A stretch of 64,000 bases of DNA, from positions 32,001 through 96,000 of the IMG/VR virus record IMGVR_UViG_3300023184_000045; one strand, written 5' to 3'. Positions 30,044 through 59,772 of this stretch are shown piece after piece. Under the pieces are notes generated by a model. That model was not told the DNA's origin, searched no databases, and saw only the letters and a list, made by a program, of their open reading frames with translations. Origin of the DNA: a virus. The position numbers were made by a program, and so were the translations under genes. Each line of letters opens with the position of its first letter. Position 1 is the stretch's first letter.

Positions 30044-32950
30044 TTAGTGTGGTATATCTTTGAGTGCGCAGATTCTTAGGCCTGTGTTGTATGGTAAGTT
30101 AGAAGGCATTGCTCTGTAAACACGCGGCGTGCTTTCGTTATATACCCCAGATCCATTTGGTTTTTGTAATACTACATCATTACCACCTGCGCAAACATCT
30201 GCCGAAGTTTGCCCAACCATATCCAATTCTTCAGAATACCTAAATCTAGGTGTTGTTAAATTATGTAAGAATGATATTAGATATGTATTTGTCTCAGTTA
30301 GTGCAATTTGATTTGTTGTATTTAATATTGCATAACTATTAATAGTATGTGAATCTGCTGGTATTCTATACGCTGACAACATATTACTTTGCATCCATGC
30401 AGTACCAGCAGTAGCATCGCTTGCAGCACCTAGGGCGGCAAGTTGTTGATAACCTGGCAGGGATGCTGAACCCGACCCAATATATGCTATCATCGACCTA
30501 GGGTCAATTGTATCTCTGTAAGCGTCAGGGTCGCCTTGTTGCGGGTGTAAGATATCTTCTTCACGTACAACAAATTTCCAATATTTATATCCAACACTAT
30601 TAACGCAAAATACCGGGCATCTTCCTTTAGTTAAAGTTTTTCCAGTGTATCGGTTAACCGGCCGTTGTACTAAAAACCAATTAAAGAAATTATCTTTATC
30701 GGTAACACTTCTAACTGAAGTTTTTTGTATTACGCTCCAATTGCCTTCCCATACACCAAAAAATAGTCCTCTATTTGTTACAGTCATTGTGTAATTTAAC
30801 GGATATATTTCAGGGGATCCAGCAACACGAGCTTCTCTATTTAAAAATCCTTCGGCTGTTTTGTCTTTGTCAGGTGCAATCATACTACCACTATAACCCG
30901 GCGTCTGATGTGGAACATTGTTTGATCCATTTGAACCACCAAAGAATACATACTTTGTTGGTTGGGAGCCCATCATCCCAGCGCGGTCAATAGGATATTG
31001 GCCTGCAGAATTAAATATATTACTAATACCACCGTCATCTTGCAATTGCAACGGTGTACCAGCATAACAGTTTAAAGTCTGCGCTCCTACACCTACTTTG
31101 TTGTACACGCTTGTGTTGCTTACAACTTCAAATGCCAGGCGCCATGGTTGTCTATACGATTCGGGAAAACTAAATTCCAATAGGTCGTGCATCGTTAATG
31201 ATGCTTGACTATCTAATCGCACGTTGGCTTTGAGATTGTTTAAATTACTTAGATTGTCGTTTACGCTAACAACAGTGCCAATTAGCACCGGGTCACCGGC
31301 GCCTAGTAGCGTTACATTTTGCCCTTCGTAGATGATTCCTCGTTTGGTAGTGGCACTATTAGATAACTGATCTACTTCAATGTACACATTACTAGAAGTA
31401 CTTGCAGTTATGTTACCAGTAACTACGCGGCTGCTATTCAATGGATCGGTTCCACCATTAGCCTCTATAATTATTAAAAACCCAGCTGCTGTTATATCGT
31501 CGGTATCTTTTGCTTTTGCTCCGGCACCTCTAACTACAATTTTGTCATCTTGGTTAATAGTAATCTCATTACTGACTCCAAACCAAGTATAAGTTGACGA
31601 ATGTTGTTTCCAATTCTTTGCGCCGGGGCCGCTCCATTCTACAATTCCGTCAACCACCAGAATAGGATTAATACTAGTAATAGTAGTGCCAGGAGGAATA
31701 ATACTTGATGGATTAGATTCCGTTGGTTCAAGTAAAATTTCTTGACCAATAAAAAATCCTGTACCGGGTACACCACTAGTAGCATCGGTATACAGCACAT
31801 TTGCCCAAAAACCATCTCTAGGCCATAAATCAATTGATCCGTTGGCTCCGTGGGCATTTTGCCAGGTCAGGCCTGCGCCTTCAGGCTGCGCCACCGGGTC
31901 CAGGCCTGTTACTCCAATTGACAAGTATGCTGCTTCGGTATAGGGGTTTATAGTGGGGTTTATAGTAGTAGACAGTTTCCCGCCATGCTGAGAATAACTT
32001 GGCTTACTAATTGCCACCGTGCCGTTGTCAGTAACATCATTATACCCAGGATCCGCCAATGGCTGTGCAATTATATCTACAGTTGGTGCATCTGTAGATC
32101 TTGCTGGTACAGTTCCTGTGCTTTGACATAAAAATGTTCTTGTATTAGCAGTAAATGTTGGTGTTGTATTTGTAGAACTCAACCCATTTACATCCACTTT
32201 TGGCCATGTTAATTCAATTATATCAGTAGGAGTCACCGGAAAGTTAGTACCTCTTCTAGGCAACAAATACCAATTATTAGCTTTAATATTGTAGTCAGAG
32301 AAACCAGGCGTCCAGTCTTTTGTCATTCTAACTGACGTAATTGATCCGTACGGGGTAACTGATGATACAACTACGCGAGGAGCCGGTACATCTAATAATT
32401 TTAATTTTGGTGGGGTTCCTGCCGAGCCAGGATCATATCCTACGTCATACACAGGGTCGGTGTCGGTGTAATAAATTGTGTCGTTTATATTCAATCCCGG
32501 ACGTAGTGCAGTAAATACAGTTCCAATTACATTTGATGGCGAACCTATCTTAGTAAAATCAGCATTGCTTCCGCCGCTATTTGTACCAATGCTCACAATT
32601 TGATATGCATGCCCGTGCAGCCACGGATCACCGTTGGGAAATACCGCATCCCCTTGTGGGGATCCAGTTGCAAAAGCCGGCACGCTAATTTCTAATACGT
32701 CACCAACTTTGTACCCAACACCACCTCTAACTATTTTTAAATCTCTTAGAGTGGGACTTGCAGAATCAAGATACAAAATTGAATTTCCAACTTCGTCAGT
32801 TGCAGACACATGTTTTTTGTCAAACCCGTGTTCGTTAATCAAAGTGCCTACCGCATCACCTACTAATTCTGCCATATTAGTAAAACCAATTACTTCAGTT
32901 GCAAAAAAGTCTTGATCTGCGTATTCTTTTGTGTAAACTATTGTTGCCAT
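30044..32950 (-). CDS. Virion structural protein (paralog of 28588-30024, with a large internal insertion)
   Basis: Same conserved motifs; about 500 extra residues after the N-terminal GFTxxxE segment; TAAATA at 33005-33010. Confidence 0.7.
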   Translation of the reverse strand: MATIVYTKEYADQDFFATEVIGFTNMAELVGDAVGTLINEHGFDKKHVSATDEVGNSILYLDSASPTLRDLKIVRGGVGYKVGDVLEISVPAFATGSPQGDAVFPNGDPWLHGHAYQIVSIGTNSGGSNADFTKIGSPSNVIGTVFTALRPGLNINDTIYYTDTDPVYDVGYDPGSAGTPPKLKLLDVPAPRVVVSSVTPYGSITSVRMTKDWTPGFSDYNIKANNWYLLPRRGTNFPVTPTDIIELTWPKVDVNGLSSTNTTPTFTANTRTFLCQSTGTVPARSTDAPTVDIIAQPLADPGYNDVTDNGTVAISKPSYSQHGGKLSTTINPTINPYTEAAYLSIGVTGLDPVAQPEGAGLTWQNAHGANGSIDLWPRDGFWANVLYTDATSGVPGTGFFIGQEILLEPTESNPSSIIPPGTTITSINPILVVDGIVEWSGPGAKNWKQHSSTYTWFGVSNEITINQDDKIVVRGAGAKAKDTDDITAAGFLIIIEANGGTDPLNSSRVVTGNITASTSSNVYIEVDQLSNSATTKRGIIYEGQNVTLLGAGDPVLIGTVVSVNDNLSNLNNLKANVRLDSQASLTMHDLLEFSFPESYRQPWRLAFEVVSNTSVYNKVGVGAQTLNCYAGTPLQLQDDGGISNIFNSAGQYPIDRAGMMGSQPTKYVFFGGSNGSNNVPHQTPGYSGSMIAPDKDKTAEGFLNREARVAGSPEIYPLNYTMTVTNRGLFFGVWEGNWSVIQKTSVRSVTDKDNFFNWFLVQRPVNRYTGKTLTKGRCPVFCVNSVGYKYWKFVVREEDILHPQQGDPDAYRDTIDPRSMIAYIGSGSASLPGYQQLAALGAASDATAGTAWMQSNMLSAYRIPADSHTINSYAILNTTNQIALTETNTYLISFLHNLTTPRFRYSEELDMVGQTSADVCAGGNDVVLQKPNGSGVYNESTPRVYRAMPSNLPYNTGLRICALKDIPH

Positions 32951-33873: not shown

Positions 33874-34292
33874 TATGCGTATCCGTGTAAAATTACTATG
33901 GGTTGATTGTTAGGTGGGGCACTAGAAAACTCAATTTCTCTGCCATTAACTACAAATGCAACACCCGGGTTTTGAAAAACGTTACCAATGAACACTAAAA
34001 GATGCATTTCGTCGCCAGGCAAATAACTATACTTCATCGGGCCAAATCTAGTTTGTGACCCATTGCCAGTATATGTATCTTTTTGTAGCCTTGATGCATT
34101 AAGACCAGTTATAAATACCTTCCATGAATTATTATAAAATATTTCAGGATCCCCGGTGGTTTTATTATATCTAATTAATCCATCCACAGGCGAATCGGGA
34201 CCAACAGCACTATACCCTACTGGTATTCGTATGCTGTGGCTAGCAGATCTCAGCTCTAGATTTTTAAGGTATCTACCCATATTAAATGCCAA
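33873..34292 (-). CDS. Small structural protein
   Basis: DGLIRYNKTTGDPEIFYNNSW and YTGNGSQTRF...LVFIGNVFQNPG are typical phage fibre/baseplate motifs; stop/start overlap with neighbours. Confidence 0.65.
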   Translation of the reverse strand: MAFNMGRYLKNLELRSASHSIRIPVGYSAVGPDSPVDGLIRYNKTTGDPEIFYNNSWKVFITGLNASRLQKDTYTGNGSQTRFGPMKYSYLPGDEMHLLVFIGNVFQNPGVAFVVNGREIEFSSAPPNNQPIVILHGYA

Positions 34293-35616
34293 TACTAGAC
34301 ACTGTTGCTATAACCACTGGCAGATCTACAGATATTACAGGACTAGTTGTACGATATGTCCAAGTTGTCACATCTGGACTAGTAGCAACTCTGGCTGCGT
34401 ACCCAACTGCTATAAATTCTGCTCTATCCGAATTCCACAGTATTCCTGTACCTGCATCGCCGCCCCAATCTGAATTTGGATTAGCAAGTGCAGTTGACTC
34501 AGTTGCCCATGAGGATCCATCGTACAAGTACACGTTTGGTAGTGTACTACCAAATACATAAAATCCGTAACCTGGCCTAAAAGTTGCACTAGCAATGCAA
34601 GGCTGTGTTGATGATGTAACTAAATCTGCAAGTCCACTGTTGTAAGTCCACGACGTGCCATTGGTGCTGGTACCCGCACTGTGGCTATCAACAGTTAGTG
34701 CCAAATATATAGATCCTGATGTTAATATTGTTGTTATCCTGTCGGTTCCCCAAGCAGGTGTGTTGTATAAATCTAAATACACAGTCCACACATTTCCATC
34801 AACGCTTCTTGCAATTTTTCCGCCAGTACCACCAACGACAAAATAAGTTCCATCCCACATAACCGAAGTTGCATCAGTAAGTAGTCCCCAATCAGGATTG
34901 GCACCAAGATTTATTCTGTTAGTCCATGTACTGCCATTAATACTGGTAGCTACCCTGGCCTGGTCGCCAACAGCCATGAATATTGATCCATTGTTAGCAA
35001 CTGCATTAATATTTTTATTTCCCCAACCAGAAAGATTAAAAATTGCATCTTTATTAGCCCAATGTATGCCATCAGAACTAGAAGCCATTAGTCCCTGGTC
35101 GCCCACTGCTACATATTGATTGCCTATCATTTTAGTAACAGCATTTATTTTTGTTCCGCTTGGCCAGCCTAATGTGTCTATTAGATCGGACTGGTATGTC
35201 CATTCTTCGCCAGTAGGACTAGTTGCAACTTTTCCGTCGTTACCAACTATTAGGTATTCACTTAAATCATGTGCCCAAGTAACTGCTCTACAATCTGCAA
35301 TTGTGCCCCATCCTGTGCTGCTCAATCCAACACCAACTGTGGATGCTGGATCAATTATGTTAGCAAACAAACCGTCACCGTCGCCAAGAATTAATTTTTC
35401 ATTGTCTATTACATAAGTGTCATGCGCAGTTAATTGCACTTTATAATAGATCAGTCTGTTATTAGTAGGAATCTCTGTATTGGGTACAGCAAAAACATTA
35501 AACATAATTGTTCTATCGCTGGTATTGCAAAAATACATAGCAGTAATAGCACTACCGCCTGCGCTGGTATAGATGCTGTCTGCTGTGGTTGTTAAAGTTG
35601 TACTGGTTAATGCCAT
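34282..35616 (-). CDS. Virion protein with a 7-bladed BNR/Asp-box-like beta-propeller
   Basis: Seven ~45-aa repeats (xW...xxAVxx...xAVGxxGxxAxSxxGxxWT) at ~34345-35325. Confidence 0.75.
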   Translation of the reverse strand: MALTSTTLTTTADSIYTSAGGSAITAMYFCNTSDRTIMFNVFAVPNTEIPTNNRLIYYKVQLTAHDTYVIDNEKLILGDGDGLFANIIDPASTVGVGLSSTGWGTIADCRAVTWAHDLSEYLIVGNDGKVATSPTGEEWTYQSDLIDTLGWPSGTKINAVTKMIGNQYVAVGDQGLMASSSDGIHWANKDAIFNLSGWGNKNINAVANNGSIFMAVGDQARVATSINGSTWTNRINLGANPDWGLLTDATSVMWDGTYFVVGGTGGKIARSVDGNVWTVYLDLYNTPAWGTDRITTILTSGSIYLALTVDSHSAGTSTNGTSWTYNSGLADLVTSSTQPCIASATFRPGYGFYVFGSTLPNVYLYDGSSWATESTALANPNSDWGGDAGTGILWNSDRAEFIAVGYAARVATSPDVTTWTYRTTSPVISVDLPVVIATVSSIGI

Positions 35617-36330: not shown

Positions 36331-36344
36331 ATTTAAAAACGAAT

Positions 36345-37355
36345 TTAAGCGTTTGATATTTTGATGTTAACATCGGCTGCAAAGTATGGTTGATTGTCAT
36401 ATACTTTAGTACCGCTAGTACCATTTGCAGTCCATGCTACTGAACTATTACTTGCAAATTGATGACTAGCACCGGTACCACGAGTCACTCGTGCTTGATG
36501 ATTTGACAACTTTGTAATGTAATATTGATTGCCAGCAGTATCAGTTGCTGTGATAGAAGCTTCGCCAGCTGTAATTACAGCTGAATCTTTCAACTTGACA
36601 ATACCAGTTCTTGTGCCATCTGTTACTTTATAACGACGTCCAGAAACTTGTCTGATTACATCAACTGTGGTTGCCGAACCACCAGTTAAGTATGCTGTCA
36701 TAGTAATTGCATTCTCGTTTTGACCAACTACAGCCGATGATCCCATTACTGCATCACCAGTAACCGATTGGCTAAATGATACAGCCGCATCGGTTGGATC
36801 GGTATATCCAGAACCGTTGTTAATCATCAACACTGATTTGGCACGATAACGCAATGTTAATGTTGCGCCAGTGGCTGTACTTGCTGAGCCGTCGGCGTGT
36901 GTTACTGTGGTTGCTTGTGCTCCAGTTGCTAAAGCACCCGATGCATACAAGAATGTACCACGGCTCAATGGTGTTACAGCAGTAACATCGTCGCCGCCGG
37001 TTCCACCAATTGTATCAACTGTAAAAGTTGCTGTGCCGGCGGAAGTAGTAACTGTTAGAATATCACCGGCTACGTATCCAGCCATTGTACCGCCAATGGC
37101 AGTTGCACTTTCAACTTCAGATGTAACACTACCAGTTGCACGTACAGCACCTAGTGCTAACTTGTCTGGATCACTGAATGTAGTCGATGGTCGTACTGTA
37201 TACGCACCCAGGGCAGTTAATGTTACACTAGCAATCTGATTACCACCAAGACCGTCATCGCCTTGATTTGCAGAATTATGTGCGTTTGTACTTTCGGCAC
37301 CATTAGCGCCGATGTTGCGATTACCAAAATATTTTTTATTTAAAGGACGTCCCAT
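36345..37355 (-). CDS. Probable abundant virion protein (MGRPLNKKYFG N-terminus), function unknown
   Basis: Thr/Ala/Gly-rich beta-type protein with a strong SD (AAGGAGA), its own late promoter, a structured leader and a terminator. Confidence 0.7.
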   Translation of the reverse strand: MGRPLNKKYFGNRNIGANGAESTNAHNSANQGDDGLGGNQIASVTLTALGAYTVRPSTTFSDPDKLALGAVRATGSVTSEVESATAIGGTMAGYVAGDILTVTTSAGTATFTVDTIGGTGGDDVTAVTPLSRGTFLYASGALATGAQATTVTHADGSASTATGATLTLRYRAKSVLMINNGSGYTDPTDAAVSFSQSVTGDAVMGSSAVVGQNENAITMTAYLTGGSATTVDVIRQVSGRRYKVTDGTRTGIVKLKDSAVITAGEASITATDTAGNQYYITKLSNHQARVTRGTGASHQFASNSSVAWTANGTSGTKVYDNQPYFAADVNIKISNA

Positions 37356-37450
37356 TTTATTTTCTCCTTAAGAATTTATGGCGTTCTATGCCATACGCGG
37401 TTGGATTTCCGCATAAAACTTGCCCTATGCAAGTCGTACTGTCTATTTAT
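37356..37450 (-). promoter_or_regulatory. Late promoter (ATAAATA, 37444-37450) followed by a structured 5' leader: three hairpins and a possible pseudoknot ahead of the SD
   Basis: Stems acttgc/gcaagt (37418-37434), gcgg/ccgc (37397-37412) and tatggc/gccata (37377-37395). G-U extensions form only on the minus strand. Confidence 0.6.
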
Positions 37451-38103
37451 CAATTTAATTCAAATAATATTAAATGAGGTGTTCCAATTGGCACTACAAA
37501 ACTAATTTGATCTATTTCTATTGCATCACCTTCGGTTAATACGATATCGTTAATAGTGCAGCTTCCTTCTAGTACCAGTAAGTAACTAAAGTCATTCGTT
37601 TTTAGATTTTGATCTAGTATTCCTGCCCAACAACTAAACCTAGTATTTTTAAACACTATAGGCAGCGGAGCAAAGCCTGCAGGGCGATCAAAAAAATTGT
37701 ATTTAGGAGTTTGATCCCAATCTATTGTATTAGGATAAATCCATATTTGCAAATATCTATTAGACTCTGAGCTTTCATTAGACAATTCGTGCCATATACT
37801 ATCACCGCACCAAAAATGTTGCACTTGCCCAGCACGAGCTATATTATCATTGCCAATGTTATCCCGATGTCTACATTGTCCAGCAATGACATAATTGATT
37901 ATGTCTAGTCCGCAATGTTCATGCCAGCTGGTAATAAATCCCGGTTTAGTTCTATCATCATTGATTGTTGTCACCGGACCCCAGTTTGTATACTTAGGAT
38001 CGCGATAATTCATACAACTAAAACTACGATAACTTTGATAGTTGTCTTCCCCTAAACGATTTAATGGAATAAATCCTCTAGTATCTGCTGGTCTAATTTT
38101 CAT
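37450..38103 (-). CDS. Pirin-family bicupin (YhhW/quercetinase-like)
   Basis: Co-linear with E. coli YhhW: RxxxxRG, SxxxFS..NYxDP, INDD, HxHxxxxIxxYVxxG...HxDxxGN, H, QIWIxP, LVLEG...LxxGDA, LxLFxL. Confidence 0.9.
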   Translation of the reverse strand: MKIRPADTRGFIPLNRLGEDNYQSYRSFSCMNYRDPKYTNWGPVTTINDDRTKPGFITSWHEHCGLDIINYVIAGQCRHRDNIGNDNIARAGQVQHFWCGDSIWHELSNESSESNRYLQIWIYPNTIDWDQTPKYNFFDRPAGFAPLPIVFKNTRFSCWAGILDQNLKTNDFSYLLVLEGSCTINDIVLTEGDAIEIDQISFVVPIGTPHLILFELN

Positions 38104-38620: not shown

Positions 38621-38646
38621 AACAAAAAAGGCTCCGAAGAGCCTTT
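38621..38646 (-). terminator. Intrinsic terminator with a C(UUCG)G tetraloop after the capsid gene
   Basis: Minus strand AAAGGCUC-UUCG-GAGCCUUU-UUU, the classic T4-type terminator. Confidence 0.9.
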
Positions 38647-38689: not shown

Positions 38690-39868
38690 TTAATAGAACG
38701 ATAAGTTTTGTACAGCAATCTCAGAAACGTAGTCGCCTGCGTTGCCTAAAGAACTTGCTGTGTTGGTCAACTCAACATAACCATAACGTGTCATGAAGCC
38801 AACTACTGGTTCAAAAGTAGATGGATCCAACACAACACCACTGCTCATTAATGGAACATATGGGCAATAAAATGCTGCTGCATCAGCTTCGCTGGAACCT
38901 TTGTATCCAACTAGAACTGGCTTAGCGTCGTCAGCATAAGAGTCAACGAAAATACGCATTGCGCCATTTAATGTACCAACAAACTTGGTGTTTGTAGGAG
39001 CTTCAAATGTACCTTCAGTAGTGCGAGCAAAAGCCGAAGTAGTTGCAGACTGTAGCACAGTTAGTGCTGCAGGAGAAACAACTGCCCAGTTAGCAGCGCC
39101 ACGACGTGTACGTTGAGCAATCAAGTTAGCTGCGCGGTTAATCAATACTGCTAGTGCAGCATGCTCGTCACCAACGAAGGTAGCTGTGCCAGATACGGCA
39201 GCTTGGTTATAATAGAGTTCAGTTGCGGCCAAAGCACGTAATGAACCTAAAACTTCCTGATCAATCTCAACTGTAATTTCTTGTGCTAGTGCAGCCATGA
39301 TTTCTGCCTCAACATCCAAACCGTGCATGGCTTGAGCGTCTTGAGCAGCTTCAAATGTCCAACGAGCAGATAGCTTACGAGTACGAGCCTCAACTACTTG
39401 CTTCAAGATTTGAACATTGATCTTACGACCTGGTTCGCCTTCAAGCGACGCAGTGGAAGATGCTTTACCAGTACCAGCATTGCCAGAATAAGCATTAGCA
39501 ATCTTGAACGGGCTCAATGCTTCGTCACCGGCTGCGGTGTCAGTGTTGTAACCGCTGGTGTCATTCATTGTTTCTGCATAACGTACACGTAGAGTGTGGA
39601 TCTGTGCAACAGGTCCGGTCATTGGCTGAACACCAACAATTTCGTTAGCAATAACAGTAGGCATTACACGACGGATAACTGGAAGAATCACACGGTTAAG
39701 TGTAGACATGTTTCCAGATGTTGTTGAACCAGCAGTTACCGATTCAGCCAATTGGCGACGTGTGTTTTCTAGGATGATTCCCATTGTTGTGCGGCGTGGG
39801 CCTTGTAAGCCTTCAAGCAGGGCATCTTTAGTCTCGCCCCAACGGCCTTCTAATAGTTCTTGTGTCAT
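38690..39868 (-). CDS. g23: Major capsid protein (T4 gp23 family)
   Basis: RRVMPTVIANEIVGVQPMTGPVAQIHTLR, RKLSARWTFEAAQD, EITVEIDQE, FYCPYVPL, GFMTRYG. Confidence 0.97.
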   Translation of the reverse strand: MTQELLEGRWGETKDALLEGLQGPRRTTMGIILENTRRQLAESVTAGSTTSGNMSTLNRVILPVIRRVMPTVIANEIVGVQPMTGPVAQIHTLRVRYAETMNDTSGYNTDTAAGDEALSPFKIANAYSGNAGTGKASSTASLEGEPGRKINVQILKQVVEARTRKLSARWTFEAAQDAQAMHGLDVEAEIMAALAQEITVEIDQEVLGSLRALAATELYYNQAAVSGTATFVGDEHAALAVLINRAANLIAQRTRRGAANWAVVSPAALTVLQSATTSAFARTTEGTFEAPTNTKFVGTLNGAMRIFVDSYADDAKPVLVGYKGSSEADAAAFYCPYVPLMSSGVVLDPSTFEPVVGFMTRYGYVELTNTASSLGNAGDYVSEIAVQNLSFY

Positions 39869-59397: not shown

Positions 59398-59772
59398 ATG
59401 ACTACATACAAAGGATTTAGCACCTACAACAGACTACGTAAATTTACGTTATCTGACTTTGACTTGGTTAAACAAGACATTTTTAATCACTTTTCAATAA
59501 GAAAAGGTGAAAAACTAATGAATCCCAAATTTGGAACAATCATTTGGGGATTGTTATTTGAACCAATGACAGAAAATATCCGTGAGCTAATAGCCGAGGA
59601 CGTTAAGACAATTGTTGATTACGACCCCAGAGTGTCAGCTGATAGCATATCAATAATTGAATTTGAACACGGAATACAAATCAATTTAAATCTTCGATAC
59701 GTGCTAACTAATCAAGTAAGCGAGTTAGCACTGAGATTTGACAGCACGTCAAATGCTTTGACTTACGCTTAG
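59398..59772 (+). CDS. g25: Baseplate wedge protein gp25
   Basis: DLVKQDIFNHF..RKGEKLMNPKFG...YDPRV; TAAATA (59387-59392) lies 5 nt upstream. Confidence 0.92.
   Translation: MTTYKGFSTYNRLRKFTLSDFDLVKQDIFNHFSIRKGEKLMNPKFGTIIWGLLFEPMTENIRELIAEDVKTIVDYDPRVSADSISIIEFEHGIQINLNLRYVLTNQVSELALRFDSTSNALTYA

Follow-up and report, generated by a model that had tools for sequence, protein, structure and literature searches.

The 5′ leader described here is a member of a catalogued orphan RNA family, freshwater-2 (Rfam RF02980), and not a mere lookalike. It heads a late mRNA of a giant phage, and we consider it probable, at roughly 0.6, that it controls translation initiation in cis through a pseudoknot that takes in the start codon. 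The DNA analyzed, referred to here as the window, is a stretch of 64,000 nucleotides from a 123,497-bp IMG/VR virus record (IMGVR_UViG_3300023184_000045, positions 32,001 to 96,000) that is estimated to be 35% complete. On its minus strand, three consecutive hairpins, here P1, P2, and P3, are followed by a Shine-Dalgarno (SD) sequence and the start codon of a gene in the head module. The sequence and coordinates that an earlier note on this DNA had given for the leader were accurate. The features to which we refer are the following.

38690-39868, minus strand: gp23-type major capsid gene (PF07068, Gp23; 1.4e-96)
37450-38103, minus strand: pirin/cupin-family gene (PF02678; 6.6e-18), inside the head module
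37444-37451, minus strand: T4-type late promoter element GATAAATA, matching the T4 word TATAAATA at 7 of 8 positions
37417-37435, minus strand: P1 hairpin, 7 bp, GACUUGC-AUAGG-GCAAGUU, with a closing G-U pair
37435-37429, minus strand: P1 5′ arm, GACUUGC
37423-37417, minus strand: P1 3′ arm, GCAAGUU
37416, minus strand: linker U
37394-37415, minus strand: P2 hairpin, 7 bp, UAUGCGG with CCGCGUA, including a conserved U-G wobble
37415-37409, minus strand: P2 5′ arm, UAUGCGG
37408-37401, minus strand: P2 loop, AAAUCCAA
37401-37405, minus strand: UCCAA of the P2 loop, 5′ strand of the supported pseudoknot
37400-37394, minus strand: P2 3′ arm, CCGCGUA
37379-37393, minus strand: P3 hairpin, 4 bp, UGGC with GCCA, with a near-invariant 7-nt loop, N-U-A-R-A-A-C
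37393-37390, minus strand: P3 5′ arm, UGGC
37389-37383, minus strand: P3 loop, AUAGAAC
37382-37379, minus strand: P3 3′ arm, GCCA
37369-37363, minus strand: SD sequence AAGGAGA, 7 nt 5′ of the AUG, inside the loop of the supported pseudoknot
37355-37353, minus strand: AUG opening the 336-aa ORF
37350-37355, minus strand: AUG GGA (start codon and codon 2), 3′ strand of the supported pseudoknot
36345-37355, minus strand: MGRP-family gene, 336 aa, all-beta, beginning MGRPLNKKYFG

Membership in the family follows from an Rfam 15 scan, in which positions 37434-37353 of the minus strand match RF02980 (freshwater-2, type Cis-reg) over model positions 1-84 of 84. The match scores 74.3 bits against a gathering score of 49.9, with an E value of 3e-11 in a 1.2-kb search and of 1.7e-9 over the whole window. 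No Rfam family besides RF02980 passes its cutoff in the window, nor does any other in the 123-kb record. Between 36800 and 38000 no riboswitch family appeared among the Rfam matches, even at E <= 10, and a 12-bit match to Alpha_RBS located elsewhere was set aside as noise. The Rfam consensus consists of a variable first hairpin, the stem UUAUGCgG...CcGCGUA, a 4-bp third hairpin with the loop cUAGAAC, and then AAGGAGAAAAcAAAUG. Our leader has the hallmarks of that consensus, with its three consecutive hairpins, the conserved UUAUGCGG...CCGCGUA stem, and the UAGAAC loop. Its placement is likewise that of a cis-acting leader, immediately 5′ of an ORF and with the SD and AUG lying within the motif. 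The earlier note, which matched the leader to no riboswitch known to it, had put it forward as a candidate new cis-regulatory RNA and had proposed the Rfam scan as a check. Given an above-threshold, full-length match to RF02980, the leader is not a new RNA class; the class was already catalogued, as Cis-reg with function unknown, and the claim of novelty therefore falls.

The freshwater-2 motif reportedly stems from the comparative screen of Weinberg et al. 2017, where it is said to appear in the supplement only, and we take RF02980 to be one motif of that 224-motif survey. A full-text literature search for freshwater-2 by name returned no relevant paper. In the main text of the survey (PMC5737381), the word "freshwater" is absent.

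Between freshwater-2 as curated and the leader there is no structural difference. What goes beyond the Rfam consensus is the late-promoter context, the tie to a single gene family beside a capsid gene, the covariation of a loop with the start codon, and a set of divergent copies. The Rfam model passes its cutoff on 10 of 17 such copies and misses the other 7, so that the family extends somewhat beyond what the curated model covers. Loci L004, L008, L012, L031, L061, L077, and L163 score 45-67 bits with our own covariance model and fall below the Rfam gathering score.

That model was built from 91 diverse copies, drawn from relatives gathered in two independent ways: 80 IMG/VR loci picked solely through their downstream protein and at least 120 viral contigs found by a strict DNA pattern. 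A MAFFT alignment misplaced P1 (47% of cells paired), and the covariance-model alignment was used instead. Every one of the 80 protein-selected loci yields a single copy with this model, which also recovers the copy in the window. The protein-selected alignment has 52 distinct rows, in which pairing holds in 93.3% of cells and compensatory changes are seen at 13 of 18 pairs. Its covariation score of 0.535 compares with 0.201 for shuffles (0 of 500 reach it) and at most 0.081 for slid registers. The three hairpins that had been read from the single sequence are thus borne out by covariation upstream of homologues, the check that the earlier note had suggested.

The hairpins differ in how they are conserved. 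P1 is freely variable in sequence among the 52 distinct relatives, with all 7 pairs compensated and 85% of cells paired. P2 is near-invariant, with 99.7% of cells paired; its sixth pair alternates among G-C, A-U, and U-A (29, 19, and 3 copies, respectively). In P3 all 4 pairs are compensated and 96% of cells pair, and the columns of its loop are 96-100% conserved, except for the first base and a G/A at position 4. The SD columns GGAG, which lie within the Rfam consensus, are 98-100% conserved. The spacing between P3 and the SD is 9 nt here, and in some relatives P3 directly abuts the SD. Mutual-information scans found no further partner columns, and none for the P3 loop, as expected for a loop that is invariant. 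The third stem had originally been drawn with 6 bp; its outer UA is shared with P2, and the two extra pairs are made by just 40-49% of relatives. We therefore count P3 as 4 bp.

In the window itself, the minimum free energy fold of the leader is the same three hairpins, at -22.8 kcal/mol (z = -2.5; 3 of 200 shuffles are as stable). Thermodynamics alone does not pick the strand, since the complementary strand folds about as well (-21.2 kcal/mol, z = -2.6). The sense strand had been favored in the earlier reading on account of the G-U pairs, and this holds up: the U-G wobble of P2 is retained in 50 of the 52 distinct relatives. The statement that the leader carries far more structure than others in the same DNA is also upheld, in that the other predicted late leaders of the window are 3-51 nt long and unstructured. 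Two apparent exceptions were rejected. A 164-nt "leader" among the window's late leaders (z = +0.9) overlaps the upstream ORF, and for a second "structured late leader," at the ATG at 59518 on the plus strand, that ATG is internal to an ORF at 59398-59772.

What, if anything, do the loops of these hairpins pair with? We find support for a pseudoknot between the P2 loop and the start of the coding sequence. The loop nearly always carries CC(C)A/G near its 3′ end and the ORF nearly always begins AUGGG; in 111 of 159 copies, the longest complement of the P2 loop starts at the U of the AUG. In the window, the implied pairs are U37405-A37350, C37404-G37351, and C37403-G37352, with A37401-U37354 possible past a mismatch; an alternative register, UCCA with UGGG, can also be drawn. 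The informative copies are those in which codon 2 departs from GGN. In one fixed register, 3 of 9 GCN copies have a loop G facing the middle base of codon 2, compared to 0 of 141 GGN copies (Fisher p = 1.5e-4). An additional search of viral contigs collected copies with ATGGC while leaving the P2 loop unconstrained, and a loop was called covering when it formed a contiguous helix of at least 3 bp over the C at the middle position of codon 2. Covering loops were found in 19 of 28 distinct GCN loop/start combinations, compared to 6 of 78 GGN combinations (p = 1.4e-9, with relatedness ignored). The compensated GCN cases differ in their P1 and P3 sequences and therefore represent several lineages. 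About a third of the GCN copies are uncompensated.

Within the loop class to which the window belongs, UCC occurs with GGA, UGC with GCA, and AGC with GCU, so that both loop positions track codon 2. The full loops are AAAUCCAA with GGA, AAAUGCAA with GCA, and AACAGCAA and AAAAGCAA with GCU. Scored as a whole in one fixed register, loop-start pairing reaches 75.0% of cells, compared to 74.7% for shuffled columns, and the covariation score is marginal (reached by 8 of 500 shuffles); the test does no better than shuffles because both strands are nearly invariant. The support thus amounts to essentially one base pair, joined in a single loop class by another, and the register varies among loop classes. 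The helix is also short, at 3-5 bp, and worth -3.1 kcal/mol in the window and -5.5 kcal/mol for the commonest loop. Weak as it is by itself, the helix would presumably have to stack on P2 or depend on a bound factor. The conservation of GGN could instead reflect selection on the MGRP N terminus of the protein. Taken together, the comparison supports a pairing of the P2 loop with the start codon and codon 2, in what would be a pseudoknot enclosing P3 and the SD. An RNA structure that overlaps the initiation region, as would be looked for in a translational operator, is indicated here by the covariation between the P2 loop and codon 2.

A different pseudoknot had been proposed by the earlier note, which drew three hairpins with a 6-bp P3 and paired GUUUUAU (37419-37413) with the P3 loop AUAGAAC (37389-37383) over 7 bp. 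The seven pairs can indeed be drawn in the window's own sequence, and the central three (UUA with UAG) are possible in nearly all relatives; with both sides invariant, however, this is uninformative either way. One subclass of leaders that has no P1 carries UCUAGA 5′ of P2, complementary to the P3-loop word CUAGA, and this could be counted in favor of a partner for that loop. Against the proposal, six of the seven GUUUUAU bases sit in stems that covary, 37419-37417 in the 3′ arm of P1 and 37415-37413 in the 5′ arm of P2, leaving U37416 as the sole true linker base. The duplex is worth -2.8 kcal/mol, and unpairing its bases from the stems costs 4.2 kcal/mol. Across relatives, 69.5% of its cells pair, compared to 69.6% in shuffles, with 0 compensatory changes, and its outer four pairs are broken in 31-81% of the distinct relatives. 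Reusing the bases of P1 and P2 as it does, this pseudoknot is very improbable, and we do not retain it.

Transcription signals put the leader at the 5′ end of a putative late unit. The pirin-like gene upstream ends in a TGA stop (37452-37450) that the promoter element GATAAATA overlaps, and the leader starts eight bases past this element. Of 158 distinct copies, 157 carry TAAATA at a distance of 13-43 nt 5′ of P2, compared to 3% of random 70-nt windows. A TATAAATA-like -10 element together with T4-type genes marks this as a predicted T4-type late unit, and NATAAATA is present in 157 of the 158 copies. Applying the geometry of T4 late promoters to the sequence, we infer that transcription would start about 6 nt past the promoter, at about 37438-37436, which is 1-3 nt before P1. 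The end of an adapter-joined contig near 37420 was considered as a transcription start and rejected; the contig belongs to a relative, and its end falls within P1. The MGRP ORF, but not the pirin gene, is covered by contigs of three lake metatranscriptomes, one contig being 978 nt long (36339-37316); these are assembled contigs, which carry neither transcript ends nor levels and in which DNA carry-over is possible. Coverage of the ORF is compatible with its expression.

The leader belongs to a giant, uncultured T4-like phage of freshwater. Among cultured phages, those closest in the major capsid protein are jumbo phages at 64-67% identity, namely Vibrio 2.275.O, PA5oct, Sinorhizobium Phosso, and large E. 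coli phages. Among 281 motif-bearing loci, 197 have a capsid gene. Of the 68 protein-selected loci with a capsid gene, 65 have it upstream and on the same strand, in 33 of them within 300 nt. In the window, two rarely found genes, a 128-aa ORF and the pirin-like gene, stand between the capsid gene and the leader. The pirin gene looks like a recent insertion, since a homologue is found in only 8 of the 281 related loci. Right after the major capsid gene, at 38627-38646 on the minus strand, there is a terminator-like hairpin, AAAGGCUCUUCGGAGCCUUU, with a U run, and similar GC-rich hairpins lie 5′ of the leader's late promoter in several relatives. Downstream of the MGRP gene, a 444-aa ORF (34282-35616, minus strand) has about six Asp-box-like repeats by eye (S/T-x-D/N-G-x-x-W-T), as a beta-propeller might; Pfam and PHROG gave no match for it.

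The motif is largely confined to such phages. Its strict form is found in at least 120 viral contigs, compared to 3 of 185,579 species-level prokaryote genomes, all 3 of which are metagenome-assembled. These three GTDB contigs (L296, L297, and L298) are labeled Vampirovibrionales, Legionellales, and Rickettsiales, and they are probably phage contigs that were binned with bacteria. In four cultured jumbo relatives (Vibrio 2.275.O, PA5oct, Phosso, and Turkey5), nothing scored above 22 bits with RF02980, and blastn of the locus against cultured phages gave no match.

The gene behind the leader is constant too, and it is normally the neighbor of the major capsid gene. Of 146 complete ORFs behind leader copies, 145 form one BLAST cluster, ranging from 109 to 512 aa. 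Members share a basic N terminus (MGRP...) and a C-terminal core, and the longer ones, including that of the window, have inserted beta domains. More than 1,355 homologues exist, all annotated as hypothetical. For the 336-aa protein we found no Pfam or PHROG match and, by tblastn, no match in 50,697 cultured-phage records. An AlphaFold2 model (pLDDT 84.7) retrieved nothing from the PDB with Foldseek at E <= 0.001. Its matches in BFVD are uncharacterized proteins of uncultured phages, together with short domains in Agrobacterium phage Atu_ph07 and Acidovorax phage ACP17. With VIA-align, the best Z score was 4.9 (a Tudor/SH3-like barrel; a T4 sheath domain), below a meaningful level. The position beside the capsid gene, the late promoter, and the strong SD fit a product that may be head associated and well expressed; the probable abundant virion gene of the earlier note would agree with this synteny. 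At L084 (1425-1515 and 3144-3232), L055/L056, L060/L062, L045, and L051, more than one MGRP-family gene is seen: some phages have two copies of the leader, each in front of an MGRP paralogue, and elsewhere the leader-headed gene is followed by another member of the family that has no leader itself.

Departures from the common layout are also seen. P1 is missing from one leader subclass (L012, L082, L093, L096, L136, L152, L176, and L188), which has (G)UCUAGA in its place, a repeat of the P3-loop word CUAGA with which it is self-complementary over 5 nt. This element could be a second binding site or could take part in a lineage-specific long-range pairing. One lineage inserts AUCGGACUUCUUUAAGGAG between P3 and the SD (L083, L104, L113, L145, L150, L167, L178, L199, and L090); in L090 the arrangement is CUCCU...AGGAG. 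AUCGGACUUCUUUAAGGAG is an anti-SD-like stretch that may be able to mask the ribosome site. Such stretches are found in some lineages only and are not conserved across the family.

How might such a leader work? In our reading, the motif makes up the whole 5′ leader of the late mRNA, and the signals directly upstream fit a T4-type late promoter. Pairing of the P2 loop with the start codon and codon 2 would occlude the start codon, and by this occlusion the leader would act in cis on initiation at the head-module gene. A trans-acting factor, most likely a protein and possibly the gene's own product, may recognize the invariant P2 stem and P3 loop and so lock or open the pseudoknot; alternatively, stem and loop may make a tertiary contact. 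P1 would protect the 5′ end. The earlier suggestion of a translational operator or ligand sensor is plausible in its first part, and its second part is the weaker reading.

A rival explanation, which we regard as possible if on the unlikely side, is a constitutive leader with no regulator at all. Its hairpins would do no more than stabilize the late mRNA, the one at the 5′ end acting against 5′-end-dependent decay, and set a fixed translation rate or provide a ribosome standby site. The conserved bases would make an RNA-RNA tertiary contact in which the P3 loop, rich in A, docks onto the P2 stem, rich in G-C pairs. The placement of P1, 1-3 nt past the inferred transcription start, agrees with this, as does the family-wide picture, in which there is neither a conserved alternative fold nor a stem that hides the SD, and in which mutual information reveals no extra partner columns. 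Yet plain stabilizers need no near-invariant stem, conserved U-G wobble, or invariant 7-nt loop, nor a strict tie to one gene family, and the subclass that dispenses with P1 lacks the very hairpin that would guard the 5′ end. The same conserved core could be read as a riboswitch, with P2, P3, and the pseudoknot binding a small molecule or ion to open or close the start codon; the high conservation of the core in sequence and the Cis-reg type given by Rfam speak for it, and small classes such as preQ1-II and SAM-II do use pseudoknots that occlude the ribosome site. We think it quite unlikely, since there is no multihelix junction or conserved internal loop, the conserved bases sitting in a regular stem and one hairpin loop; the gene, of one family in 145 of 146 ORFs, encodes a head-module protein rather than a metabolic or transport function; and no riboswitch family is matched.

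That P1 and its U run might instead be an intrinsic terminator for the pirin-like gene, or that the conservation acts at the level of DNA, is hardly credible. GCAAGUUUUAU does come right after the P1 stem, but the site was not called by a terminator scan, it lies downstream of the late promoter, and in most relatives the U run is interrupted or only 2-3 nt long. The leader moreover persists in most relatives although the pirin gene is absent from them, and the conserved G-U pairs, the SD, and the AUG all mark a sense-strand RNA.

The regulated, start-codon-occluding leader that we prefer has known analogues. In E. coli, rpsO (S15) and the alpha operon (S4; Rfam RF00140) have pseudoknotted leaders at the initiation region that are stabilized by a protein, with the ribosome blocked or trapped. 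These operators are the closest analogue for the possible mode of action here, in that the pseudoknot involves the initiation region; there is no similarity in sequence or model, and the gene in our case encodes a phage head-module protein. The T4 gene 32 leader combines a 5′ pseudoknot with an A/U-rich operator in autogenous translational repression. Like it, the present leader is found in a T4-type phage, is structured, is followed by an A-rich spacer and a ribosome site, and is gene specific; unlike it, the leader has another fold and sequence, the gene 32 pseudoknot excludes the start codon, and autoregulation here is hypothetical. The preQ1-II and SAM-II riboswitches are small pseudoknots that hide the ribosome site. 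They are similar in size, and in them, too, a loop pairs downstream over initiation signals; in contrast to them, the leader has no match to a riboswitch family in Rfam, no metabolic gene context, and no evident ligand pocket.

Going one step further, the leader might be an autogenous operator bound by the MGRP protein, or its core might sense a small molecule that times late head-protein synthesis; either would be a speculative extension that we hold to be unlikely. In the autogenous version, unassembled copies of the MGRP protein would bind to the invariant stem of P2 and loop of P3, thereby locking the start-codon pseudoknot. The basic N terminus of that protein, MGRPLNKK..., is the one part conserved across all length variants of the family.

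The value of these findings lies in the context they give to an orphan motif, whose carriers are giant, lytic T4-like phages from lakes and from some marine waters, not cells. Freshwater-2, until now listed with "function unknown," acquires a testable model, translational control of a phage head-module protein. Should the autogenous version prove true, giant T4-like phages would match the synthesis of a capsid-associated protein to the assembly of the capsid.
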